The notes below the pieces were generated by a model. It did not search any database and was not told the origin of the DNA. It saw only the letters and a program-made list of their open reading frames with translations. Of a stretch of DNA of 27,653 bases, positions 5,262-18,930 are shown piece by piece. The stretch spans positions 1 through 27,653 of the forward strand of contig JBFYXR010000501.1 of assembly GCA_041310455.1 (NCBI GenBank). Reading direction: 5' to 3'. The DNA comes from Desulfobacteraceae bacterium (GTDB lineage: Bacteria > Desulfobacterota > DSM-4660 > Desulfatiglandales > HGW-15). The position numbers and the translations under genes were made by a program. Position 1 is the stretch's first letter; the number at the start of each line of letters is the position of its first letter.

Positions 5262-5277
5262 TGGCACAAAGGTTGCT
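5262..5277 (+). promoter_or_regulatory. sigma54 (-24/-12) promoter
   Basis: TGGCACAAAGGTTGCT is GG-N10-GC and matches the TGGCAC-N5-TTGCW consensus. It lies upstream of nitrogen genes. Confidence 0.85.
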
Positions 5278-5545: not shown

Positions 5546-5911
<366 letters not shown>

Positions 5912-5967: not shown

Positions 5968-8670
5968 ATGAATAATCCATCATATCATTTGAATAAGGCC
6001 CTGCACCATAGCCCGGCCGCGCAGCTGGTTTCTGCGGGATCTCCCGTGGAAACGCTAAAGAAGGCCAGAGAGGATCTGGTTGCCGATTTTCTGGAAGGGA
6101 AGGTGTCCTTTTCCTTCCAGGAGGAGTACTCGGAGATCATGGACTATTATTTCCGCATGACTCTCCAGGAAAGCAGAGCAGGGGAAGCGCTTTTCAGGAA
6201 GGGCATACCTTTCGCGCTGGTTGCGGTGGGAGGCTACGGGCGGAATGAACTATGCCTGTATTCGGATATAGACATACTGATCCTCTTCAATAAAAACATA
6301 CCTCCCCAGGCAAAGGCCCTTGCAGAGGAGATATTTTATCCCCTCTGGGATATCGGGATGGAACTGGGTTACGGGGTCCGCACTGTTAAAGACTGCCTCT
6401 CCCTTTCAAAAGACGACTTTGAGGTCCTGACATCCCTTATAGATATACGATTTATATGCGGAGATTCACCTCTGTACCTGAAGCTGGCTGAGGAGTTCCA
6501 GAAAAAGGTTATCAGGAAAAGCGCTTCATCCTTTGTAAAGTGGCTTTATGAACTTAACAAGGTCAGGATGACGACCTTCGGAGACGCGAGCCACCTGCTT
6601 GAACCCAACCTCAAGGAAGGGATAGGAGGGCTGAGGGACTACCATCACATCCTTTGGATGGCAAAGGCCTTTCTGGATGTCAAGGAGCCTGAGGAGCTGG
6701 AGCAGCTCGCAAAATTTTCCCCGGACGAGTACAAGGATCTCAAGGATTGCGTAAGATTTATCCATCTGGTCCGCAATCATCTCCATCAGCTTTCAGGAAG
6801 GAAAAATGACCGCCTGGTTTTCGAATATCAGGAAAAGATTGCCAGGCGCCTTGGTTACAGAAACCAGCCCAAATTTCCGGCAGTCGAACAGTTCCTTGGA
6901 AGGCTTCATTCAGGCATGGAGTCCGTAAAAACCCTGCACAGGTCCTTCCTGTCAATTCATGCACCCCAACGCCGCCGGGATACTGGAAATACGACGGACA
7001 GAGAAGTATCCGGGGGCATTCATATGTCGGACAATGAGTTAAATTTTGCTTCAAACAGCCTTATCATAAATGATCCCTGCATAATGATGGAGATCTTTGA
7101 AGCCGGCTGCCGTCTCGGGCTTCCCCTTTCCCTGGAGGCAAGGAGGCAGGTTAAAAAATTCTCTTACCTCGTTGATGATGATTTCATGCGGTCTCAACGG
7201 GCCTTCAGGGCTTTTCTGAATATCATGAATGACCCCAACACTGTTGACACCCTTGACCAGATGTTTGAAACAGGATTCCTGGACGCCTATATCCCTGAAT
7301 TCGGGGCAATAAGAGACCGGGTGCAGTTTGATGCCTACCATATCTTTCCGGTCGGAAGGCATGTCCTCGAGACAGTGGCAAACCTGAAAAGCCTCCCAAA
7401 GGAAAAGGACCTGTTCCTCTTTGAAACCTTTGCCGACATTAAAAACAGTGAACACCTTTTCCTGGCAGGACTCTTCCATGATATAGGAAAGAGCGGGAAA
7501 GGGCACGCGCGCAGAGGGGCTCAAATAGCGAGAGCCATCCTTGAACGGATGGGATACCCGGAAAATTGGATTGAAGAAATTGCCTTTCATATAACCCATC
7601 ACCTCCTGCTGGCGGAGACCGCCACCCGCAGGGACCTGGACGACGAAAAAATAATCATCCATACAGCCCGGATCATAGGTGACATAGACCGGTTAAAGGC
7701 ATTATATCTTTTGACATGGGCCGATTCAAAGGCCACAGGGCCGAGGGCCTGGAACGAATGGGCAGCCAACCTGGTTCAGGATCTTTTTTTCAAGACGCTG
7801 CATATCCTTGAAAGCGGCGAACTGGCAACGCCCGATTCATCCCAGACGATCAGCAGACTGAAGGCCAGGCTCAGGCGCAGGACGGCTGAAAATATCAGTC
7901 ATGTCGATTTTGAACGTCTCTTCGATCTGATGCCCACCAGATACAAACTCAGTACCGCCTCAGCAGATATCATACGCCACATGGAGATGGTCCTCAGGTT
8001 TAAGGAAGAGGTTTCAAGGGGCGATGCCATACCATTTATCCTGGACGTCAAGGAGGATAAAACAGGCGGATTCTGGCAGGTAAGCTTCGTGGGCAGGGAC
8101 AGGCCGGGGCTTTTTTCCGATATTGCCGGCGTAATGGCCCTGAACAGCATCAATATCCTTTCTTCAAATATATATACATGGAGGAACGGCGATGCCGTTG
8201 ATATCTTCTATGTTACAAAGCCCCTTGACCGGCTTCATCCTCATGCCACATGGGAAAAGGTTGAATCCCTTTTAAAGGGGGCCTTCAGCGGGAAGATCTC
8301 CCTGGCCCAGCGTCTGGCTCAGAAGGCAGAACCTTCCGTGCTGACCGAGGCAGGAAAGCCCAGACACCCTCCCGCGGTGGTTATCGACAACCATTCCTCG
8401 GATTTTTTCACAATTATAGAGGTCTTTGCATCCGACAGGATCGGCCTGCTTTATCTCATAACACACACGCTGTTTGAGCTTGAACTGGATATCCGTATTG
8501 CAAAGATAGGCATGAAAGGAGACCAGACAGCCGACGTCTTCTATGTCCGTGACCTCGAAGGGCAAAAGGTTGAAGATGAGGGGCGGGTCAATGAGATAAA
8601 AAATTCACTTCTCTACCAGCTTTCCGGGGATAAGCAGCCCCTGAGACCCGATCAAATAGCCTCCGGCTGA
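5968..8670 (+). CDS. glnD: [Protein-PII] uridylyltransferase / uridylyl-removing enzyme
   Basis: NT motif AVGGYGRNEL..YSDIDIL, EPNLKEG.GGLRD, HD domain LFHDIGK and two C-terminal ACT domains (DRPGLF, DRIGLL). Adjacent to glnB. Confidence 0.95.
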   Translation: MNNPSYHLNKALHHSPAAQLVSAGSPVETLKKAREDLVADFLEGKVSFSFQEEYSEIMDYYFRMTLQESRAGEALFRKGIPFALVAVGGYGRNELCLYSDIDILILFNKNIPPQAKALAEEIFYPLWDIGMELGYGVRTVKDCLSLSKDDFEVLTSLIDIRFICGDSPLYLKLAEEFQKKVIRKSASSFVKWLYELNKVRMTTFGDASHLLEPNLKEGIGGLRDYHHILWMAKAFLDVKEPEELEQLAKFSPDEYKDLKDCVRFIHLVRNHLHQLSGRKNDRLVFEYQEKIARRLGYRNQPKFPAVEQFLGRLHSGMESVKTLHRSFLSIHAPQRRRDTGNTTDREVSGGIHMSDNELNFASNSLIINDPCIMMEIFEAGCRLGLPLSLEARRQVKKFSYLVDDDFMRSQRAFRAFLNIMNDPNTVDTLDQMFETGFLDAYIPEFGAIRDRVQFDAYHIFPVGRHVLETVANLKSLPKEKDLFLFETFADIKNSEHLFLAGLFHDIGKSGKGHARRGAQIARAILERMGYPENWIEEIAFHITHHLLLAETATRRDLDDEKIIIHTARIIGDIDRLKALYLLTWADSKATGPRAWNEWAANLVQDLFFKTLHILESGELATPDSSQTISRLKARLRRRTAENISHVDFERLFDLMPTRYKLSTASADIIRHMEMVLRFKEEVSRGDAIPFILDVKEDKTGGFWQVSFVGRDRPGLFSDIAGVMALNSINILSSNIYTWRNGDAVDIFYVTKPLDRLHPHATWEKVESLLKGAFSGKISLAQRLAQKAEPSVLTEAGKPRHPPAVVIDNHSSDFFTIIEVFASDRIGLLYLITHTLFELELDIRIAKIGMKGDQTADVFYVRDLEGQKVEDEGRVNEIKNSLLYQLSGDKQPLRPDQIASG

Positions 8671-8820
8671 AGCCGATTGCCCAGGGGGCCGGAGATTCAA
8701 TGGCCAGGGGAAAATCATTTCCGGATTGCCTCCATCACCCGAATCCTTTCCTTTCAGGTTTCTGTGACCGGCCAGACAATCTGCGGCCGCCCCGAATTAT
8801 GGAAAAAATGTAAGAAAAGA

Positions 8821-8857
8821 AAAAAGTGTTGCAATAAATGCCGATATTTTATATTCA
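8821..8857 (+). promoter_or_regulatory. Putative sigma70 promoter with A-tract, duplicated upstream of the paralogue (10652-10690)
   Basis: AAAAGTGTTGCAATAAATGCCGATAT aligns with AAAAGTATTGAAATAATTCGGGATAT. The -35 boxes are TTGCAA/TTGAAA and the -10 boxes at 17 bp are weak. Confidence 0.35.
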
Positions 8858-8961
8858 ATTATAAATAGTATTGATACTGAACTATTAGCGACCTTCCTGT
8901 CTGCCTTTCGGAGGGAGGTCATTAATCTTAAGCATCTTCAAACATTAAAAGGAGGTCATTT

Positions 8962-10587
8962 ATGGGAAAAAGAGCAAGGCATGACATTTTTATTAATCTC
9001 AAGCGGTTTCTTCTGGTACTGTCCTTTCTGCTCGTCACAATAGGATGGGCACAGGCCGCCGAACCTGCAAAAATAGGCGGAAATAACGTAAGCGATTACA
9101 TAACATTATATCCTGATAAATTTACCGACAGGGAAAAGGCCCTTGCTGAAAAGTGGATTGCCGACAACAAGGCTATTGAAGCCCGAGGCCCAATTGACAT
9201 AAAGGCCCTTATCAGCGGCAACCTCCCCAAGGACACCCCGGGTGTCATAAGCGGTTCTCTTGCAGTAACAGAGGAAATGATCCGCTATAACAACAATAAG
9301 TATGACCCTGATAATCCCGTCCTGAATGATGCGGCCTATGCCAAAAAGCTGGGCTATGAGAACATCTTCGCCATGCCCACCTTCGCCGCCAATGACGACA
9401 ACATCTTGAAGGCATATCCGGCTGAGGCAAGAGACAAGCTGCTTGTCAGCGATCTCAATCACAGCATCACATATTACAAGCCGATATACCCGGGTGACAC
9501 CCTCTATACCGTTATCAATAAACGGTCCTTTTTAGATGCAACCCCGAAGGAAGGATCTATATTCCGCGCCGTTTGCATTCAGTGCGAGGCCAGTATCTAC
9601 AATCAGAAGGGTGAAAAGGTTAATGACTGCATCTTCCGCGTCACAGAAAATATCGGGATTTTGAAGGAGGGCACGGCAAACGTTTCCGGAGGCATGAATC
9701 CCGCCTGGGTCGGCCCGGCATGGACAAGCCGGCCCATGCATATTTACACCGATGCGGATTATAAATACATCAAGGAACTCTGGTCAAAGGAGAAACGTCA
9801 GGACGGCACGCCCCTTTACTGGGAAGATATAAAGGTAGGCGACGAGCCCACATGGACTGTTGACGGCCCTATCATGGCGACCGCCAATCCCACCAGGCCC
9901 TATGGCCAGGGTATCGGCGGCAGCCGCACCCTGAAAAAAGAGATCATGGACCCCGCGATCTTTAAGACCTTGATCAAAGACGAAAATGGAATCTGGCTCA
10001 CCTCTAATAAAGAGGGTTATATCCCCACCGTGCCTTCCACGGGAGGCCGTGACGGCGCTCCTGCCGGCGCTCCCCCATCAGGCGGACAGGCCGGCGCCCC
10101 TGCTGGAGCTCCCGCATCAGGCGGACAGGCCGGCGCCCCGGCCGCCAGCGGTCCTGCCAGTGACATCGATACAAAAGAGATCCATAAACAGGTCGGTTCA
10201 GAAAGAGCCGCTTTGATCAACTACGTGGGCCGAGACATCGCCATTCGCCATATCAACAACTGGATGGGCGATAAGGGCTGGATCTCTAACATACGCTGGA
10301 GCATCATGGCCCCATCGGCCCTTGCAGCGGTCGGTCTTAAAGTCGCCGCAAACCCTGCTTCAGAGCGTTTCGTTGATCAGGTGCCCAAATTGAAGGCAGC
10401 GAACAAGGTCGTGAATGCCCATGGCCTGACCTATGAGCTGGCTATCGTAAAGTCCTATATCGCCAAGAAATACCAGAAAGGCAACGAATATTTCGTTGAC
10501 CTGATATGGTGGATTGAAAATCTGGATGGTTATATATGGGAAGAGGGCGGCGCAACAGTCAGGCTGCCCTCTAAAAACACAAAGTAA
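8962..10587 (+). CDS. Signal-peptide-bearing double hotdog-fold (MaoC/FAS1-like dehydratase family) protein, paralogue 1
   Basis: N-terminal basic-hydrophobic-AQA signal. Hotdog 1: YDPDNPVLND..YAKKLGY...AMPTF, YKPIYPGDTL, YNQKGEKV. Hotdog 2: YWEDIKVGD, IH...NWMGDKGWI, VDLIWWIENLDG..WEEGGATVRLPS. RBS GGAGG. Confidence 0.7.
   Translation: MGKRARHDIFINLKRFLLVLSFLLVTIGWAQAAEPAKIGGNNVSDYITLYPDKFTDREKALAEKWIADNKAIEARGPIDIKALISGNLPKDTPGVISGSLAVTEEMIRYNNNKYDPDNPVLNDAAYAKKLGYENIFAMPTFAANDDNILKAYPAEARDKLLVSDLNHSITYYKPIYPGDTLYTVINKRSFLDATPKEGSIFRAVCIQCEASIYNQKGEKVNDCIFRVTENIGILKEGTANVSGGMNPAWVGPAWTSRPMHIYTDADYKYIKELWSKEKRQDGTPLYWEDIKVGDEPTWTVDGPIMATANPTRPYGQGIGGSRTLKKEIMDPAIFKTLIKDENGIWLTSNKEGYIPTVPSTGGRDGAPAGAPPSGGQAGAPAGAPASGGQAGAPAASGPASDIDTKEIHKQVGSERAALINYVGRDIAIRHINNWMGDKGWISNIRWSIMAPSALAAVGLKVAANPASERFVDQVPKLKAANKVVNAHGLTYELAIVKSYIAKKYQKGNEYFVDLIWWIENLDGYIWEEGGATVRLPSKNTK
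10054..10143 (+). repeat. In-frame 39-nt tandem repeat (GAPAGAP[P/A]SGGQA x2.3) in an Ala/Gly/Pro linker
   Basis: Units at 10054-10092 and 10093-10131, partial unit at 10132-10143. Absent from paralogue 2, which has a shorter linker. Confidence 0.85.
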
Positions 10588-10612
10588 AAGATAATCTGAA
10601 CAAATCATATAT

Positions 10613-10642
10613 GGGGCTGTCCGACCGGGCAGCCCCTTTTTT
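10613..10642 (+). terminator. Rho-independent terminator after paralogue 1
   Basis: GGGGCTGTCC-GACC-GGGCAGCCCC followed by TTTTTT. Confidence 0.85.
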
Positions 10643-10787
10643 ATGCAGAAAAAGAAAAGTATTGAAATAATTCGGGATATCCGTTAAAAACAAGATATTT
10701 CATTACTAAACTTCTTTTTTACTTTCAATAACCATTTAGGTTACATTATTAATCATAACTGTTTCAAAAAACGAATGGAGGTCATTT

Positions 10788-12341
10788 ATGGGAAAAAGCA
10801 TGAGACGTGACATTTTTATCAACTTAAAGCGGGCGATCTTAATAGCTTCGCTTCTGCTCCTCACATTAGGATGGGCTCAGGCCGCCGAACAGGCTAAGGC
10901 GGCCGGCAATGTGGAAAGTGATTTTGTGACATTATATCCCGGCGTGTTCACCGAAAAGGAAAAGGCCTCCGTCGAAAAGTGGATAGCAGAGAACAAGGCC
11001 ATTGAAGAGCGCGGCCAGGTTGACATACAGGCACTAATAAAAGGGACACTACCCAAGGATACACCAGGTGTCGGCGCAAAGCTTGAGGTTACAAGGGAAA
11101 TGATGCTTTACAATTCCAACAAGTATGACCCTGAAAATCCTATCCTCAATGTTGCGGAATATGCAAAAAAGCTGGGTTATAAGGACATCATCGCCTATCC
11201 GACCTTTGCCCCTAACGACGACATAATAATGCCGAAGTATCCATTAAGGGACAAGATGCTTGTCAGTGATCTTAACCACAATATCACCTGTTATAGGCCG
11301 ATCTACCCCGGAGATACTATTTACACCGTTATTAATAAGCGCTACTTTATTGATGCAACCCCACTCGAAGGTGACACATACAGGAGGGTCTGCATTTATT
11401 CCGAGGCCAGCCTCTACAATCAGAATGGTGAAAAGGTTCAAGACGCCATTTTCAGGGTCACAGAGAACATCAGGATGCTGAAGGAAGGCAAAACGGCAAT
11501 CGCTGACGGCGGTCCTATGCCTGCGTGGGAGTCCCCTGCCTGGAAGAATCGTCCAATTCATGTCTATACCGATGCCGACTGGGACAAGATCAAAAAGATA
11601 TGGTCGGAGGAAAAGCGTCAGGGCGCCACACCCCTTTACTGGGAGGATGTGAAGGTTGGCGCCTATACCGGTAAGACTCTGGATGGCCCCATAATGGCCT
11701 CTGTCACCCCGACTGAGCCCTATGGCATGGGCACCGGCGGTAGCCGCACCCTGAAAAAAGAGATCATGGACCCTGCAACCTTCAAAACAATGATAAAGGA
11801 TGAAAACGGAGTCTGGATCACAAAAAACAAGGCTGACTATATTCCGCCTGTGCCTGGCGCCAAGGCCGAAGAAGCTCAGGAGCCCGCTGCCGCTCCTGCC
11901 TCTTCCGGAGGCAATGACATAAACACTGCTGATATCCACAAGTCAACCGGCAGCGACAGGGCGGTCCTGATCAACTACATGGGCCGCGATATGGCCATAC
12001 GCAATATCAACAACTGGATGGGCGATGCGGGCTGGCTTTATAACATCCGCTGGAGCATTATGGCCCCTTCTGCCATGGAGGCAGCCGGCAGAAGAACCAT
12101 ACAGAGTCCGATCACAGAACGCTATGTTCACAGGATCCCCGTACTGGCACAGGCAAACAGGGTCGTCAATGCACACCCCCTCAGTAATGACGTGGGCATA
12201 GTGCAGGCCTATATAGAAAAAAAGTTTGTCCGGAACAACGAATTTTTTGTAGATCTGGTCTGGTGGGTTGAGGATATCGACGGGTATATCTTTGAAGAAG
12301 GCGGAGCGACGGTAAGGCTTCCATCTAAAAACGTGAAGTAA
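10788..12341 (+). CDS. Signal-peptide-bearing double hotdog-fold (MaoC/FAS1-like dehydratase family) protein, paralogue 2
   Basis: Collinear with 8962-10587, with long identical blocks (GGSRTLKKEIMDP, INNWMGD, EEGGATVRLPSKN), the same AQA-A signal cleavage motif and the same GGAGGTCATTTATGGGAAAA start context. Confidence 0.7.
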   Translation: MGKSMRRDIFINLKRAILIASLLLLTLGWAQAAEQAKAAGNVESDFVTLYPGVFTEKEKASVEKWIAENKAIEERGQVDIQALIKGTLPKDTPGVGAKLEVTREMMLYNSNKYDPENPILNVAEYAKKLGYKDIIAYPTFAPNDDIIMPKYPLRDKMLVSDLNHNITCYRPIYPGDTIYTVINKRYFIDATPLEGDTYRRVCIYSEASLYNQNGEKVQDAIFRVTENIRMLKEGKTAIADGGPMPAWESPAWKNRPIHVYTDADWDKIKKIWSEEKRQGATPLYWEDVKVGAYTGKTLDGPIMASVTPTEPYGMGTGGSRTLKKEIMDPATFKTMIKDENGVWITKNKADYIPPVPGAKAEEAQEPAAAPASSGGNDINTADIHKSTGSDRAVLINYMGRDMAIRNINNWMGDAGWLYNIRWSIMAPSAMEAAGRRTIQSPITERYVHRIPVLAQANRVVNAHPLSNDVGIVQAYIEKKFVRNNEFFVDLVWWVEDIDGYIFEEGGATVRLPSKNVK

Positions 12342-12353
12342 AACACGACAGGC

Positions 12354-12391
12354 AAAAAAAGGGGGTGCCCTTCCGGGCAGCCCCTTTTTTT
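12354..12391. terminator. Bidirectional Rho-independent terminator between paralogue 2 and the HEAT-repeat gene
   Basis: A7-GGGGGTGCCC-TTCC-GGGCAGCCCC-T7, between convergent stop codons. Confidence 0.85.
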
Positions 12392-12393
12392 AT

Positions 12394-13188
12394 TTACTCC
12401 GGCTTGTTTTTAGCCCACCAATCCAGCCATTTCTCAGGGTCATCGCCAAGGCGCTGGCCGGTTATCTTCTTCAAGGCCTGGCCTGCATAGCTCTCCTTTC
12501 CATAGGACTGAAGCAATTCAATCAGGGAGGGCACGGCCTCCTGGGCCTCAAGCTCCCCGAGGGCATATGCCGCCTTCTGCCTGACATCAGGATCTTCGCT
12601 TTTCAGGGCTTCGATCAATGCCTGCACTGCATTGCCCAGCAGGTCAATCAGCCATCTTTCAGACATTTTACCAAGGGCCTCTGCCGAGCAGGAGCGGACC
12701 TCATAGTCAGCGTCTGTCCGGAGGGCCGCTATGAGCGAATCGACGGATTCCACGTCCGCTATTTCACCGAGGGCGACTGCCACACTGCGCCTGACCCCGG
12801 AACGGGGGTGGTTCAGGAGTGCGTCTGAAAGGGGTATTACGGCGGGCTTGCCGATCCTGGTCAGAGACTCCCGGCATTCATCGGAAATATAGGGTCCGAA
12901 GTTGCCGAATACCGTCACCACATTCAGGATTTTTTTTAACAGTGATTTGTGTCTCTCGGTAGAATCCAGCAGTTCTATAAGATACTGGACCGAAGGGAGG
13001 GCTTCGGCTCCCATCCCGCCAAGATTGCGCGCCGCAATGATCTTTTGCTTTGCCGATCCTGACTGAAGCATTTCAATCTGCTCCTTAACAACCTCAGACA
13101 CAGCAGTATCCTGGGCGCCCGATTGCCCGGCGGTTAATAACAGCACAGCAAGGAAAAGTAACGCAGCTGATGTGATAAATTTTTTCAT
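12394..13188 (-). CDS. Exported HEAT-repeat (PBS lyase HEAT-like) protein
   Basis: Signal peptide MKKFITSAALLFLAVLLLTAGQSGA, repeated VR..A..ALG.I/L motifs and C-terminal LKKITGQ..GDD..KW..WW. Confidence 0.8.
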   Translation of the reverse strand: MKKFITSAALLFLAVLLLTAGQSGAQDTAVSEVVKEQIEMLQSGSAKQKIIAARNLGGMGAEALPSVQYLIELLDSTERHKSLLKKILNVVTVFGNFGPYISDECRESLTRIGKPAVIPLSDALLNHPRSGVRRSVAVALGEIADVESVDSLIAALRTDADYEVRSCSAEALGKMSERWLIDLLGNAVQALIEALKSEDPDVRQKAAYALGELEAQEAVPSLIELLQSYGKESYAGQALKKITGQRLGDDPEKWLDWWAKNKPE

Positions 13189-13332: not shown

Positions 13333-16300
13333 CTACTGATTGCTTAACAAATATGCCTCATAAAATCCCCTGACCCTTTTAAGGCATTCGTTCAGTTGGT
13401 CCATAAAAAGCTCGGCGTTCGAATCCACACCCAGCATCCTTTTTGACAGTGCGGAAAGCTCATTTCGGTCTCCGGGAATTGCATGCACCTGGCGGTCCTC
13501 AAGGAGCTGGAGATAGTGTTCCGTCCTCCTTAAAAATACATAATCCTTCTTGAGGGTATCAGCCGTCTCATCGGGCAGTATCCCTGCCTCGCACAGTGAT
13601 TCTATGGCAAGCATGGTATTGCCCTCATAGCTGATTCCCCTGTCAGGGCTGTGCATCATCTGGAGCCCCTGCACCATGAACTCCACATCCCTGATCCCGC
13701 CTATCCCTGATTTGATATCCACTTTATCCGTGAGGGGGCCTGCATATGTCTGTATCGCGAGGTTCCTCATCTTTTCAATGGACTCGATAATCAGTCTTCG
13801 ATCCCTTGGTCTTTTTAACAGGGCGTCCAGCTGCTCAAGAAATTCATAGCCCAGACTCAGAGCTCCTGCAACAGGCCTCATCTTTATGGCCGCCTGTATC
13901 TCCCACAGGGATGCTGACTTTTCATAATAATTCATTATCCCCCTGATGCTGTTGACCAGTTCTCCAGAGGTCCCGAAGGGTCTCAGCCGCAGATCCACCC
14001 TGTATGCATAGCCTTCTTCGGTATAGGAAGAGAGGTCCGATATAACCTCCTCCATAAGCCTTGAAAAAAGCTCCTTATTGTCATAGCAGTGCCTGCCGTC
14101 TCCTTTTGAAATACCGGGCATATGAAAGATCCCCAGGAGATCGATATCTGAGCTGTAGTTGAGTTCGTTGCCGCCCATCTTCCCGAAGGCCATGATACAG
14201 AAACAATCGGCAAGCCCCCGGCCCTCAACCTTTTTCCCATCAATTATCCTTTTGAGGCATTCCTCCAGCACTGCCTGTGTCAATGCCTCCGCAAGAGCAG
14301 TCAGCTCCTGCATGATAATCCTGGGAGACACCTTCAGATACATGTCCCTTGTGCCGATCCTCAATATCTCCCGTCGTCTGAACCTGCGGAGCTTGTTTAG
14401 CCATTCCCCGCGGCTCAGGCATGAGCTTGCAGAGGCCCTCAGCTCCTTTTCAAGGTCTTCCCTTCTCCTGATGCGGTGCAGCACCTCCGGTATAATCAGC
14501 CAGTCAAAAAACCCCGGATTCCTGATGAGTGTGTCAGAAAGGAACTGGCTCCCTGAGAATATGCTCAGCAATATCTCCAGATGCATAGGCTGGGATAAAA
14601 GGACATTGTAATGGAACTCCGCATTGCCGAAGGAGTGGATGAAGCGGTCCCAGTTGTTGAGCGCCATATCAGGGTCAGGCATCCTTTTTAACATGTCCCA
14701 TGCAAGAAGGGCTATCCTGGTAAAAAGTTCCCTCCTGCTCCCTTCGCCTGCCAGCCCCTGAAGGTTGATATATGCCCTCCGGGGGTCCCTGAATCCGCCC
14801 TGGGACAGTATCCTGTTTCTAAGATCCTCCGGCATATGCTCGGAAAGGATTACGTCCACAACCGTCCCTGTATCGGGGCCGGGCAATGAGTCACGGCCGA
14901 AATATCTTTCCGCGAAGACCCTGACCATCGCCGTATGGGTTTCAAAATCCAGATACAGCTTCTGTGCCGTATCAAGAGGCCCGCCCCGCGCATAGCCCAT
15001 GCGTCTCGCCAGATGGCCGAATTCATTTGTCCCTGCTGAGGGGAGGAAGAGGTCCCTGGCATTGCCCCTCAGCATCCTGAGTCCGTTTATAAGATTCCTC
15101 AGGAAATTGTATGCCTCCATAAGGCGCATTGAGTCTGCCTCCGACAGGATGCCTGCTTCGCCCAGGACCGCCAGCGCTTCGTGAATGCGTGCAGTCCTTA
15201 GGGCAGGGATCTCCTTCCCATGTATGACCTGCAGGATCTGAACGCCGTATTCAAGATCAACAAGGCCGCCCGGGCTGAATTTAGCGTTGACCTTTCCGGG
15301 AACGCTCTTTTCCCGAAATTGCTTTTCCCTCAGATTTCTTATCTCCGCGATATCTATGTTGTCTGAAAAATATACAAGATCATCCCTTATACGCTCGAGC
15401 TGTCTGCCCAGTTCATAATTCCCACCTATGGCCCTCATGCGGACCAGAGAAAGAAGCTCATAAGCATGGGCCTGTCCGTCTTTTCCATAGTATCCGCAGA
15501 AGGTCTCCAGGCTGCACGCAAGAGGGCCTGATTCTCCGTGTGGCCTCAATCTCAGATCAACCTGAAATATTCCCTCCCTCTTTGATTCGATAAAGAGGTT
15601 GACGCCTTTTGCCAGCAGATTGAAAAACTCGGAATTTTCTATGGGCGATTCGCCGTCAGTCCTGCCGTTGTCGTTATATACAAACATCAGTTCGATGTCC
15701 GAGGCGTACCCCAGGGCGGCGCCTCCGAACTTGCCAAGTCCGAGAACGGCATAAGCGGCGCTGAGGCCTGCAACGGAGGTGGGCCGGCCGTATCGCTTGA
15801 CAAGATCGCTGTACACTGCATCAGCTGCTGAATCAACGACGGCTTCGGCAAGCCCTGTCAGCCTCTCTGCCATGGATTTAATATCCGGCTCATTCTTGAA
15901 GATATGATCCAGATCGATCAGAAAAATTTCCTGATCCTTAAAATTATTGACTGCCTTTTTCCTTTCATCAAACGAAACAGCCCCTTCCACTGCCAGGGCC
16001 AGCTTTTCCCTTACAGCCTCCGGCGAGCTGCTCAGGAGGTGCCCATGACCTTCCGGCCTTAATAATGGAAGCAGAGATTCATATTGAAGCCTGATAAAAT
16101 CCTCCCAGAGGAAATCGCTCGCCCCCAGAAGCCGCGCGAAGTCCTGGAGATTGTCTGAGTCGGCGAGATAGGAAATCCATTTTTCCTTGAATGGCTTCTT
16201 CAGAACATCGTTTAACAGCTGTTCAAACCTCGAGAGGGCTGCGTAGGGATCTGGCGCCTTGACCAGAAAATAGGTGAACTCCTTTGTGAGAAGGACCGAG

Positions 16301-17133
16301 AGCTTTATCCTGTCCAGAATATCCCTGTCCTCAATCTTGTGCCCGCGCAGATCAACAAGATCAATAACGTCTTCAACCCTTCCATGGATTGTCCTTATCC
16401 TCACATGTTCAAGCAGTATATTATGCAGAGAGAGGGCATTGGACAATGAATATAAAAAGGCGGGTGTATCTTCAGAGACTATTTTCAGTCTTGTAAAAGG
16501 GCCTTCATTGCTGATATCGATCTCAACCGGATAAAGGACCGGTTCCGAACCTGACTGGATAATGGAAAGATGATTTACAACCATCTCATTTACGCGGTTC
16601 CTTGCCTCCATGAAGGATTGGTCATCACCCTGTTCCAGCAGGCTGATTACCTCCTCAATATTCCGGCTGAGCTGATCCGCCCAATTTTCAAAATACAGCG
16701 GATTGACAAGGACGCCGGAAAAAAAATCAATAATTTTCCGCCTGCTGACGTCCCTGTAAGGTGAGGATAATGAATGCCTCCTGTTTTTGGAAAACCGGGA
16801 TGGTTCAGCGTCATAGTCGGTTGAATATGTGTAGACATCTCCGGACATTATGTTAAAGCCTGTGCCCGCGAAGATGCCTGTTATCAGGGAAAGTTCGCCG
16901 GGATAATCAAAGGCGAGGACTGTGCATTCAATTTCATCCTCTCTTACCCTGTCGATGATGAGTTCTACCGGGTGATTTGAAGAAAGCCTTGATATGGCGA
17001 CGATATGGCGCCTTACATGGTCTTCGGAAAACCGCTTGAAATAGTCATGGCCCAGCCTGTTATGATGGCCCTTCAAGACCTCTTCATCCATCTCAGGCAT
17101 TGATTTTTTAAGTGACTCAAGATCTGGTTTCAT
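13333..17133 (-). CDS. glnE: Glutamine synthetase adenylyltransferase/deadenylase with extra N-terminal GlnD-like ACT domains
   Basis: Two GlnE NT domains (GLGKFGG..LGYASDIE; AFGKMGGNELNYSSDID), two D(L)RLRP.G.SG motifs, and K...GG..D.E/F motifs. The N-terminal ~290 aa contain ACT motifs (DYPGELS, EDTPAFLY). Downstream of glnA. Confidence 0.9.
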   Translation of the reverse strand: MKPDLESLKKSMPEMDEEVLKGHHNRLGHDYFKRFSEDHVRRHIVAISRLSSNHPVELIIDRVREDEIECTVLAFDYPGELSLITGIFAGTGFNIMSGDVYTYSTDYDAEPSRFSKNRRHSLSSPYRDVSRRKIIDFFSGVLVNPLYFENWADQLSRNIEEVISLLEQGDDQSFMEARNRVNEMVVNHLSIIQSGSEPVLYPVEIDISNEGPFTRLKIVSEDTPAFLYSLSNALSLHNILLEHVRIRTIHGRVEDVIDLVDLRGHKIEDRDILDRIKLSVLLTKEFTYFLVKAPDPYAALSRFEQLLNDVLKKPFKEKWISYLADSDNLQDFARLLGASDFLWEDFIRLQYESLLPLLRPEGHGHLLSSSPEAVREKLALAVEGAVSFDERKKAVNNFKDQEIFLIDLDHIFKNEPDIKSMAERLTGLAEAVVDSAADAVYSDLVKRYGRPTSVAGLSAAYAVLGLGKFGGAALGYASDIELMFVYNDNGRTDGESPIENSEFFNLLAKGVNLFIESKREGIFQVDLRLRPHGESGPLACSLETFCGYYGKDGQAHAYELLSLVRMRAIGGNYELGRQLERIRDDLVYFSDNIDIAEIRNLREKQFREKSVPGKVNAKFSPGGLVDLEYGVQILQVIHGKEIPALRTARIHEALAVLGEAGILSEADSMRLMEAYNFLRNLINGLRMLRGNARDLFLPSAGTNEFGHLARRMGYARGGPLDTAQKLYLDFETHTAMVRVFAERYFGRDSLPGPDTGTVVDVILSEHMPEDLRNRILSQGGFRDPRRAYINLQGLAGEGSRRELFTRIALLAWDMLKRMPDPDMALNNWDRFIHSFGNAEFHYNVLLSQPMHLEILLSIFSGSQFLSDTLIRNPGFFDWLIIPEVLHRIRRREDLEKELRASASSCLSRGEWLNKLRRFRRREILRIGTRDMYLKVSPRIIMQELTALAEALTQAVLEECLKRIIDGKKVEGRGLADCFCIMAFGKMGGNELNYSSDIDLLGIFHMPGISKGDGRHCYDNKELFSRLMEEVISDLSSYTEEGYAYRVDLRLRPFGTSGELVNSIRGIMNYYEKSASLWEIQAAIKMRPVAGALSLGYEFLEQLDALLKRPRDRRLIIESIEKMRNLAIQTYAGPLTDKVDIKSGIGGIRDVEFMVQGLQMMHSPDRGISYEGNTMLAIESLCEAGILPDETADTLKKDYVFLRRTEHYLQLLEDRQVHAIPGDRNELSALSKRMLGVDSNAELFMDQLNECLKRVRGFYEAYLLSNQ

Positions 17134-17163
17134 AAAGGTGTCTTTTTGTTATTGGACATTGAT

Positions 17164-17256
17164 TATAAAAAAGCTCTCAGCGTTCAGCTATCAGCTGTCA
17201 GCTTAAACCTTCATCGTGCATAATTCAGCTGAAAGCTGACTGCTGATAGCTTTATA
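17164..17256. repeat. Inverted heptamer array, copy 2
   Basis: TATAAAAAAGC TCTCAGC GTTCAGC TATCAGC TGTCAGC ... GCTGAAA GCTGACT GCTGATA GCTTTATA. Same family as 1610-1704. Confidence 0.8.
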
Positions 17257-17289
17257 ACATACTACAAATTGCATCCCTATGAAAAGCGC

Positions 17290-17326
17290 AAAAAAAAGGC
17301 CCGCGGACAGCAGGTCCGGGGGCCTT
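17290..17326 (-). terminator. Rho-independent terminator after glnA
   Basis: Minus strand AGGCCCCCGGAC-CTGCT-GTCCGCGGGCCT followed by a run of T, about 25 nt after the glnA stop. Confidence 0.8.
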
Positions 17327-17350
17327 ATCTTGGAAGGTTATTAAAAAGGC

Positions 17351-18775
17351 TTAAATGTCGTAATAAAGCATAAATTCATAGGGATGAGGTCTCAGATCCA
17401 TTGCCTCAACCTCATTCACCATCTTGTAGTCGATCCAGGTATCAATAACATCCTGTGTAAACACATCGCCCTTGAGCAGGAAGGCATGATCGTTCTTCAG
17501 GGCATTCAATGCTTCACGCAGTGACCCGGGTGTCTTGGATACCTTCATTGCCTCTTCCGGCGGAAGGTCATAGATATTTTTATCCAGAGGCTTGCCCGGA
17601 TCGATCTTGTTCTGGATGCCGTCAACCGCAGCCATCATGATGGCTGAGAAGGCAAGATAGGGATTGCACGACGGATCAGGGCAGCGGAACTCAATGCGTT
17701 TGGCCTTGGGAGAAGTGCTGTACATGGGAATACGCACGGCAGCGCTGCGGTTTCTCTGGGAATAGGCCAGGTTGACAGGGGCCTCATAGCCCGGTACCAG
17801 ACGCTTGTAACTGTTCGTTGTCGGGCTGGTCAGGGCAAGCAGCGCAGGTGCATGCTTCAGGATGCCTCCGATAGCGTACATCGCGGTCTGTGAAAGGCCT
17901 GCATAACCGTCTCCTGCAAACAGGTTACTACCACCCTTCCATAAAGAAAAATGGCAGTGCATGCCGCTTCCATTGTCTCCGAAAAGGGGCTTGGGCATAA
18001 AGGTCACGGTCTTGCCGGCCTTGCGGGCGGTATTCTTGACAATATACTTGAACTTAAGAAGGTTGTCGGCCATCTCGACTAGGGGCGAAAACTTGGTCCC
18101 TATTTCACACTGTCCCGCAGTGGCCACCTCATGGTGATGCACTTCCACTTCAATGCCGATTCCCTCAAGATTCAAGGCCATCAGGCTTCTCAGATCCATC
18201 AGTGTGTCGGAAGGAGGAACAGGGAAATACCCCTCCTTATGGCGGATCTTGTAGCCGAGGTTGGGATTCTCGACACGTCCTGAATTCCAGATACCTTCAT
18301 TGCTGTCTATATGATAATAGGACTCATGGGAGTTGGTGTCGCAGCGAATATCGTCAAAGACAAAAAATTCAGCCTCCGGGCCCAGATAGGCGATATCTGC
18401 AACACCGGTGCTCTTCAGATAGTTCTCTGCCTTCAGCGCGATATTGCGCGGATCCCTGGTATAGTCGGCCCCGGTAACCGGGTCACATATGTTGCATATC
18501 ATTACCAGCGTCTTGGTGTCCATGAATGGATCTATAAATGCCGTGGAAGGCACGGGTTTGATAAGCATATCCGACTCATTGATTGCTCGCCATCCCCTTA
18601 TGGAGGAACCGTCAAAACCCTTTCCCTTCTCGAAGGTGTCCTCGTCTACGACTGCTGCAGGAAAACTGGAATGCTGCCACAATCCGGGGAAATCCATAAA
18701 ACGCAGATCCACAATCTTCACGTTTTCCTTTTTAATAAGTTCAAGTACATCCTTTGGTGTATTTATTCCAGCCAT
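17351..18775 (-). CDS. glnA: Glutamine synthetase type I (GSI-beta, adenylylatable)
   Basis: [73 protein letters not shown] and the adenylylation loop [10 protein letters not shown]. Confidence 0.98.
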
Positions 18776-18914: not shown

Positions 18915-18930
18915 AGCAACAGCCATGCCA
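18915..18930 (-). promoter_or_regulatory. sigma54 (-24/-12) promoter of glnA
   Basis: Minus strand TGGCATGGCTGTTGCT (GG-N10-GC). It shares the TTGCTATT ending with the glnB-region promoter. Confidence 0.85.

Follow-up and report, generated by a model that had tools for sequence, protein, structure and literature searches.

Hotdog-fold dehydratases and hydratases are textbook thioester enzymes, and those of the hydratase-2 type carry their catalytic Asp and His in the motif G-D-x-N-P-[LIV]-H. Four pseudo-dimeric double-hotdog proteins, the mesaconyl-CoA hydratase MeaC (8hgn), a Chloroflexus enzyme (4e3e), MSMEG_6754 (4v12) and 5i7n, are cytoplasmic users of coenzyme A (CoA) thioesters. HadA, of the UPF0336/PF13452 (FAS1_DH_region) type, is the non-catalytic N-terminal hotdog of HadAB and of the fungal fatty acid synthase (FAS) dehydratase; it works in the cytoplasm with a separate catalytic HadB on mycolic acid precursors bound to acyl carrier protein (ACP). 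No hydratase activity has been demonstrated for the cytoplasmic mycobacterial protein Rv0216 (2bi0), which is likewise a double hotdog. In this work we have analysed two tandem genes, p1 and p2, on contig JBFYXR010000501.1 of a Desulfobacteraceae bacterium (assembly GCA_041310455.1; the whole stretch of 27,653 nucleotides is called the window below), whose products have the double-hotdog architecture and carry signal peptides. A sequence-only reading of this DNA had described them as exported MaoC-like paralogues, and both open reading frames (ORFs) lie exactly where it had placed them, encoding proteins that are 62% identical across their full length (BLASTP, E = 0). We tentatively propose, while rating the proposal somewhat short of probable, that p1 and p2 are periplasmic, CoA-independent hydro-lyases acting on free small molecules of the enone or enoate type.

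The two-hotdog fold assigned by the sequence-only reading is borne out by structure prediction. AlphaFold2 models, computed from input alignments of 65-66 sequences, have a predicted local distance difference test score (pLDDT) of 92.1 and a predicted template modelling score (pTM) of 0.88 for p2, and of 90.1 and 0.87 for p1. When they were compared with the PDB using Foldseek, the top match of both was MeaC (E 7e-11 for p2 and 4e-10 for p1), followed by 4v12, 5i7n, 4e3e and, at rank five for both models, Rv0216. These double-hotdog matches have E values of 1e-7 to 7e-11, target TM scores of 0.5-0.6 and identities of 8-13%, and for MeaC and the three enzymes resembling it the E values are 1e-9 to 7e-11. 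Foldseek gives a probability of 1.00 for MeaC, hydratase 2 and structures akin to them; further down the list come hydratase-2 domains, dehydratase regions of fungal FAS and thioesterases of the FatA type. Although p1 and p2 have the same architecture as MeaC and the three enzymes resembling it, identity to these is about 12%, and p1 and p2 are ~150 residues longer, the differences being a helical segment at the N-terminus, a large insertion and a Gly/Pro/Ala-rich linker. To Rv0216 identity is 8-9%, with no homology detectable from sequence. The models place a leader first, then a helical segment (residues ~44-94), hotdog 1 (~95-232), a conserved connector (RPxHxYTDxDW … LYWEDVxxGD) and hotdog 2, which is interrupted ahead of its central helix by a disordered Gly/Pro/Ala-rich insertion. 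A conserved disulfide was ruled out, since the Cys positions of p1 and p2 differ; p2 has only two Cys, neither of them conserved.

How much of this can be recovered from sequence? Pfam matches p1 to PF13452 at residues 100-221 with 23.6 bits, which is 1.6 bits above the cutoff of 22, and finds nothing in p2; PF01575 matches neither protein. NCBIfam yields sub-threshold HadA/HadB-type matches only (12-20 bits against cutoffs of 180-350), and a single-sequence search of PDB sequences gave no match. A profile of the family reached HadA at E 5e-6, Rv0637, and the N-terminal half of MeaC at E 5e-4, always through hotdog 1, and HadA-type proteins are the sole sequence-level relation of p1 and p2. 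PF13452 is precomputed on several homologues and absent from most. The second hotdog is detectable only in the predicted structures. The label of MaoC/FAS1-type domains given by the sequence-only reading therefore fits the N-terminal half, which is HadA-like, and has no sequence-level counterpart in the second half.

The catalytic motif is a separate matter from the fold. Hotdog 1 was aligned to PhaJ and HadB (hhalign, E 5e-6), and the segment YDPENPxLND-x-YAK falls on the hydratase-2 motif. In p2 the position of the catalytic Asp is occupied by Pro115, with Asp114 adjacent; where the catalytic His would stand, each of the 178 full-length members of the family has L, Y, F, W or R instead. No alignable motif or similarity to PhaJ or HadB was found in hotdog 2, and the C-terminal hotdog, having no HadB-type motif, does not provide a catalytic partner of the MaoC/HadB type in cis. 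Judged from these alignments, neither half has the Asp/His dyad of hydratase 2. With the defining motif missing, p1 and p2 should not be filed as (R)-enoyl-CoA hydratases even though they have the fold. In lacking the catalytic His, hotdog 1 resembles HadA; unlike HadA, p1 and p2 have the partner half fused, without a HadB-like motif, and are predicted to be exported. From MeaC and the three enzymes named with it they differ in the absence of GDxNPxH and the presence of a signal peptide.

The signal peptides proposed by the sequence-only reading also stood up to closer inspection. As read from the sequence, the leader of p1 is MGKRARHDIFINLKRFLLVLSFLLVTIGWAQA, with AEPAK following the predicted cleavage site, and that of p2 is MGKSMRRDIFINLKRAILIASLLLLTLGWAQA, followed by AEQAK. 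Both have a net charge of +3 within the first 14 residues, a 13-residue hydrophobic core (h-region, residues 16-28) and the ending GWAQA before AE, with A-Q-A at -3 to -1, and they show the features of Sec type I leaders: a basic n-region, a hydrophobic h-region and small residues at -3 and -1. Hydropathy places the sole strongly hydrophobic stretch of each protein at residues 9-27, AlphaFold2 renders residues 1 to ~40 as a low-confidence helix detached from the fold, and an equivalent leader with an AXA site is retained in every close homologue. The start codons are secure because GGAGGT sits 6 nt 5' of each ATG and the 22 nt around both starts are identical. A lipoprotein leader was ruled out by the absence of Cys. 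A twin-arginine translocation (Tat) leader was rejected as well: at the position of the Tat motif (S/T-R-R-x-F-L-K) p2 has RRDIF, but RR is replaced by RH in p1 (RHDIF) and by RY, RC, RQ or RH in close homologues, and is thus not a conserved feature. The h-region, moreover, is too hydrophobic (Kyte-Doolittle ~3 over 10 residues) and does not follow the motif directly, NLKR lying between them. We read both leaders as predicted Sec signals.

Could p1 and p2 still be ordinary cytoplasmic (R)-enoyl-CoA or enoyl-ACP hydratases, whose leader is a start-codon artefact or an uncleaved anchor? Their fold matches CoA hydratases, and homologues, where they are not called 'hypothetical', bear names such as 'acyl dehydratase' or 'MaoC family dehydratase'. 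We nevertheless find this scarcely credible, given that the ribosome-binding site (RBS) is placed exactly for the annotated ATG, that in p2 the next in-frame Met after M5 comes only at about residue 104, and that the leader is conserved together with its AXA site. Even with an uncleaved anchor, the positive-inside rule would put the domain outside the cytoplasm, and the catalytic dyad is missing.

The family to which p1 and p2 belong is small. An exhaustive HMMER search of 1.84 billion representatives returned 287 proteins at E <= 1e-3, 72 of them at E <= 1e-30, and an indexed homology search with a 309-residue core as query gave 306 clusters. A single-sequence scan of genome contigs returned one locus, L001 (L numbers denote related loci), and an exact look-up of p2 in the contig index gave no match. 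The sources are Deltaproteobacteria, Firmicutes/Clostridiales, metagenome-assembled genomes of Pseudoxanthomonas and Asticcacaulis, and many wetland, peat and gut metagenomes. In the literature that we searched there was no characterised member and no account of exported MaoC-like proteins. Among the 178 full-length members, 97 have no leader and start at a conserved YPGVY segment, and 75 have a hydrophobic leader. These leaders are of several types: Sec, lipoboxes, two canonical Tat motifs (TRRNFMK and DRRTFLK, in the distant members P0030 and P0041) and one SLH-type surface anchor. Parsimony on a neighbour-joining tree requires at least nine switches between the leader-bearing and leaderless states. 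Export is a trait of clades and not of the whole family, and the question raised by the sequence-only reading, whether homologues generally keep the leader, is answered differently for close homologues, all of which do, and for the family overall.

The conserved residues are alike in the leader-bearing and leaderless classes, and not one of the positions compared across the 178 members is specific to a class. Because the conserved residues are the same, we infer the same function inside and outside the cytoplasm; judging from this conservation, it is probably one shared, catalytic function. A thioester of CoA or ACP is a difficult substrate to square with such a function, and this is the strongest, if indirect, support for CoA-independence. 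Overall identity between the sequences is only 25-35%, yet conservation reaches 93% or more at about 30 positions, many of which hold a polar residue: in p2 numbering the polar set comprises D176, D189, T191, R199, N211, Q212, E275, D287, H463, D468 and K479, with N396, Y260, H258 and D262 conserved at 85-93%. Loss of the dyad, invariance of this other polar set and repeated re-targeting (Sec, lipoprotein, Tat) together argue for thioester-independent chemistry on the hotdog fold, and the chemistry of the family is probably undescribed. The fold itself is not new; the family is, and so are the loss of the motif, the repeated export and the company of redox enzymes described below. The sequence-only reading had suggested a role of the fold outside the cytoplasm that does not depend on CoA or ACP, and this gains independent support from leader switching, shared conserved residues and dyad loss, to which can be added that CoA-activating and beta-oxidation genes are not recurrent neighbours.

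A binding function has to be weighed against catalysis here. p1 and p2 could be non-catalytic periplasmic binding or carrier proteins, the tunnel of which sequesters a ligand, hydrophobic or phenolic, that is to be taken up, sensed or detoxified. This would agree with the absence of the hydratase-2 dyad from both halves, with the structural match to Rv0216, a double hotdog without known activity, and with the frequency of TonB receptors or solute-binding proteins among the neighbours. However, some 30 near-invariant positions that include His, Asp, Lys, Arg and Glu are more enzyme-like at so low an overall identity, and about half of the family is cytoplasmic and stands among catabolic enzymes. 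We therefore consider a purely binding role unlikely. Pairs of tandem or nearby paralogues are also found in leaderless contexts (L002:8692-11428, where proteins of 426 and 475 aa are encoded 29 bp apart, L004/L005, L069 and L089), and such recurrent two-copy arrangements may reflect hetero-oligomers.

What company do the homologues keep? In 90 related loci ORFs were called, neighbours within 7 kb were clustered and recurrent clusters were annotated. The commonest neighbour, at 13 of 69 loci, is an iron-sulphur (Fe-S) flavoenzyme of the Oxidored_FMN plus Pyr_redox_2 type, whose best models, all below their cutoffs, are BaiCD, bilirubin reductase and FadH-type. EFR1-like flavodoxin-ferredoxin fusions are found at 6 loci, at a mean distance of ~0.5 kb, and FAD_binding_2 flavoproteins, short-chain dehydrogenases/reductases (SDR), zinc-dependent alcohol dehydrogenases, glyoxalase-fold proteins and LysR regulators also recur. 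TonB-dependent receptors lie near the leader-bearing class, and ATP-binding cassette (ABC) solute-binding proteins take this place in Firmicutes; in Gram-positive organisms members occur as lipoproteins or SLH-anchored proteins. At L008 a leader-bearing member directly follows one of two molybdoenzyme pairs of the transhydroxylase type (AthL/BthL-like, pyrogallol-phloroglucinol transhydroxylase-type, PF21423; 6392-9801 and 16881-20304) that flank it, in the company of a CoA-transferase III, an old yellow enzyme-FAD (OYE-FAD) enzyme, an SDR and IclR/MarR regulators. A tannase/feruloyl esterase is encoded at L090 along with three TonB receptors, and a module of SDR, FAA-hydrolase and histidinol-dehydrogenase-like genes is common to L003, L045 and L047. 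Pfam-less exported beta-helix-like proteins recur at 7 loci, near leader-bearing and leaderless members alike; the window itself encodes none. Acyl-CoA ligases, acyl-CoA dehydrogenases and thiolases were not recurrent among the neighbours at the loci examined. What these contexts have in common is redox catabolism of small molecules, in many cases with electron-transfer modules directed to the periplasm, and not the metabolism of lipids or fatty acids.

This pattern bears on the option, raised by the sequence-only reading, of an envelope lipid-modifying enzyme, by which p1 and p2 would modify lipids or lipoproteins, their targets being the acyl chains of lipids in the outer membrane or the periplasm. 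The hotdog tunnel classically fits acyl chains and the proteins are predicted to be exported; yet genes for lipid or lipopolysaccharide (LPS) biosynthesis are not recurrent neighbours, the cytoplasmic half of the family conserves the same residues, and the anchored Gram-positive members sit beside solute-binding proteins. Gene context lends the option no support and we hold it to be highly improbable.

The electron-transfer modules deserve separate consideration. An operon common to two independent long contigs, L027 (6524-14574) and L091 (4735-14620), encodes a Tat-EFR1-like protein, a NapH-like protein, a Tat-NapG-like protein, an exported hotdog protein, small exported Gly/Pro-rich proteins and an OYE-FAD enzyme; the partner proteins carry canonical Tat motifs. 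Within it a glyoxalase is particular to L027 and a second EFR1-like protein to L091, where a second, more distant family member lies at 15286-16950. Might p1 and p2 then be the substrate-binding or catalytic subunit of a new kind of periplasmic reductase for organic substrates, served by Tat-flavodoxin-ferredoxin and NapGH-like, cytochrome b or PepSY_TM modules, with the partners encoded elsewhere in this genome? Besides the shared operon, the EFR1-like fusions that adjoin leaderless members (L002 and L013) and the cytochrome b and PepSY_TM genes next to exported members (L090 and L003) speak for it. It is rather improbable all the same: fewer than 10% of the loci show the arrangement, no such genes lie in the window, conserved clusters of Cys or His are absent, as the Cys content of p2 illustrates, and no hotdog fold is known to bear redox cofactors.

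According to the reading that we prefer, that of periplasmic hydro-lyases, p1 and p2 would be exported by Sec and cleaved between AQA and AE, and the mature proteins would reside in the periplasm. Their hotdog tunnel would bind a free molecule, with neither CoA nor ACP, and they would act as hydro-lyases or isomerases on carbonyl or carboxyl compounds that are alpha,beta-unsaturated or carry a beta-substituent, either removing water or some other leaving group by beta-elimination or, in the reverse direction, adding it. The substrates would probably be phenolic or alicyclic compounds derived from plants or humic matter. A new residue set would replace the Asp/His dyad of MaoC, with H463, D468, K479, R199, D176, E275 and N396 (p2 numbering) as candidates. 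In relatives the substrate or product may be coupled to Fe-S flavoenzyme ene-reductases, and a dehydratase joined with an ene-reductase would amount to taking off a beta-substituent reductively; p1 and p2, in the present genome, would stand alone and be transcribed separately. A parallel exists in bile-acid 7-alpha-dehydroxylation, in which the dehydratase BaiE, a protein of the SnoaL fold, works with the Fe-S flavoenzymes BaiCD and BaiH. The logic of eliminating and then reducing would fit the pairing of hotdog protein and ene-reductase, as an analogy only, since there is no homology and no bile-acid genes are present.

Several points weigh against this proposal. The literature searched held no biochemical data for any member, and export of p1 and p2 is predicted from sequence and not from experiment. 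The contexts are heterogeneous, the commonest neighbour being present at only ~19% of loci; the neighbour statistics rest on naive ORF calling, which is noisy in high-GC contigs; and genes related to CoA do appear in a few contexts (a CoA-transferase and a thiolase at L008, ptb/buk-like pairs at L002 and L006). Within the window there are no partner genes.

A broader version, which we regard as doubtful, would see in the family a new class of CoA-independent hotdog enzymes working on free small molecules on both sides of the membrane, which in Gram-negative bacteria would be the catalytic partner, in the periplasm, of Tat-exported flavodoxin/Fe-S proteins and NapGH-like quinol dehydrogenases in the reductive dehydroxylation of plant polyphenol- or humic-type compounds. 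If true, it would mean an unrecognised periplasmic system of dehydration followed by ene-reduction, possibly coupled to respiration. The company of redox enzymes, molybdoenzymes, tannase and TonB receptors, and the wetland, peat and gut sources, point to the anaerobic turnover of plant-derived phenolic and alicyclic compounds, many steps of which still have no enzyme assigned. The family offers a defined and testable target: it comprises ~300 sequence clusters, two of its proteins have confident structure models, and a small number of residues stand out as candidates for catalysis.

The features of the window, together with those of the beta-helix-like neighbours, are collected in Table 1.

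Table 1. Positions of p1, p2 and surrounding features in the window, and of beta-helix-like genes at related loci
Feature	Position	Strand	Basis or remark
p1	8962..10587	+	541-aa exported double-hotdog protein; ORF, PF13452, AlphaFold2, Foldseek
p1 RBS, GGAGGT	8951..8956	+	read from sequence; ATG at 8962
p1 weak promoter-like block	8829..8857	+	A-run, -35-like TTGCAA 8829-8834, TATATT/TATTCA 8850-8857
p1 predicted signal peptide, 32 codons	8962..9057	+	predicted cleavage between AQA and AE; sequence inspection, hydropathy, close homologues
p1 N-terminal HadA/PF13452-like hotdog core	9259..9624	+
p1 disordered Gly/Pro/Ala-rich insertion in second hotdog	10036..10161	+	AlphaFold2 pLDDT <50 at residues 365-396
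p1 intrinsic terminator	10613..10646	+	10-bp GC-rich stem and T-run; hairpin 10613-10636
p2	10788..12341	+	517-aa exported double-hotdog protein; ORF, AlphaFold2, Foldseek
p2 RBS, GGAGGT	10777..10782	+	read from sequence
p2 weak promoter-like block	10662..10690	+	TTGAAA, 17-nt spacer, TAAAAA
p2 predicted signal peptide, 32 codons	10788..10883	+	predicted cleavage between AQA and AE; contains RRDIF, Sec-like h-region
p2 N-terminal hotdog, residues ~95-232	11070..11483	+	degenerate hydratase-2 motif YDPENPILNV without catalytic His
p2 second hotdog, residues ~283-517	11634..12338	+	conserved N396, H463, D468, K479
p2 disordered linker splitting second hotdog, residues ~352-386	11841-11945	+
Bidirectional terminator of p2 and HEAT-repeat gene	12352..12391	both	GC-rich hairpin 12366-12379 and T-run
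Perfect sigma-54 -24/-12 motif	5262-5277	+	~300 nt 5' of the PII gene preceding glnD
PII gene	5573-5911		112 aa; precedes glnD
glnD	5968-8670
Exported HEAT/PBS-lyase-like repeat gene	12394-13188	-	signal peptide …SGAQD; between p2 and glnE
glnE	13333-17133	-
glnA	17351-18775	-
One-mismatch sigma-54 motif	18915-18930	-	5' of glnA
Exported beta-helix-like family, 520-1000 aa	L011:1376-3358; L013:5483-7372; L017:6642-8879		shared ~70-aa C-terminal module
Exported beta-helix-like family (continued)	L020:2724-4286; L029:6719-9733 and 16169-18010

Each of the two genes had been credited by the sequence-only reading with a promoter, an RBS and a terminator of its own. The RBS and the terminators were found, and the promoters are less clear. 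The block AAAAGTRTTGMAATAAWT upstream of p1 aligns with the upstream region of p2, the two having in common an A-rich segment and a TTGMAA element; a sigma-70 scan reported neither block, and no consensus promoter passed it. Promoters of their own are plausible for p1 and p2 on this sequence evidence. An Rfam scan of 8600-12500 revealed no riboswitch or leader RNA. In p1 a 39-bp tandem repeat at 10053-10144 (2.4 copies, 88% match; Tandem Repeats Finder) encodes the GAPAGAPxSGGQA repeats of the disordered linker. It is missing from p2 and looks like a recent expansion. Gly/Pro-rich low-complexity segments of the GPPPGG/GAPAG type, as in this linker, also appear in many exported proteins of the related loci (L091:4010-4498, 11529-12065 and 14701-15114; L090:10298-11770 and 13884-14201; L082:828-1370; L029:6719-9733), some of them fused to EF-hand motifs (also L015:11746-12186).

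More questions are raised by the position of p1 and p2 among nitrogen-control genes. Pfam, NCBIfam and, in one case, translation give the order carB (- strand), PII, glnD, p1, p2, HEAT-repeat gene (-), glnE (-) and glnA (-), so that the genes do lie between convergent glnD and glnE, as the sequence-only reading had it, with the exported HEAT-repeat gene as an additional occupant of the space between p2 and glnE. The order glnD-hotdog-HEAT-glnE recurs at L001 and L010; at L015 the hotdog gene is 3' of glnD but is not followed by the HEAT-repeat gene and glnE. All gln-linked homologues are close relatives (69-83% identity), and more distant homologues of ~74-76% identity and below occupy unrelated places, for example beside non-ribosomal peptide synthetase genes or beta-helix proteins. 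The perfect sigma-54 motif ahead of the PII gene is TGGCACAAAGGTTGCT; the search found no sigma-54 motif 5' of p1 or p2, and on this ground direct NtrC/sigma-54 control of these genes was rejected. From the motifs, the gln units appear to be under NtrC/sigma-54 control, unlike the hotdog genes. Restriction to close relatives and the absence of sigma-54 motifs at p1 and p2 lead us to take the location as inherited synteny and not as functional evidence; the position looks incidental.

Would a link to nitrogen status nevertheless make sense? MaoC-like hotdogs can eliminate ammonia, as beta-alanyl-ACP ammonia-lyase does, and p1 and p2 could be nitrogen-scavenging lyases that release ammonia from an extracellular beta-amino compound, co-regulated with nitrogen status. 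In addition to the gln position in the window, L001 and L010, and after glnD alone in L015, it could be argued that no clear terminator was found in the glnD-p1 interval, which makes read-through from glnD into p1, starting at the sigma-54 promoter ahead of the PII gene, possible. Against this, the synteny is confined to close relatives, each gene has its own terminator and no sigma-54 motif, and the wider family associates with redox and catabolic genes and not with nitrogen genes. We judge such lyases very unlikely.

A functional link of the hotdog genes to the HEAT-repeat gene was not supported either: it is convergent with p2, lies 3' of glnE and co-occurs with the hotdog genes in close relatives only (L001:1684-2481 and L010:4175-4774). 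Elsewhere in the window, a 491-aa class-II glutamine amidotransferase is encoded at 64-1539 on the - strand; with 125 bits against the purF model cutoff of 350, it is purF-like and probably not an amidophosphoribosyltransferase proper. GlnE is unusually long at 1266 aa, its first ~270 residues matching the ACT-domain C-terminus of GlnD (NCBIfam), and the same architecture is seen at L001.

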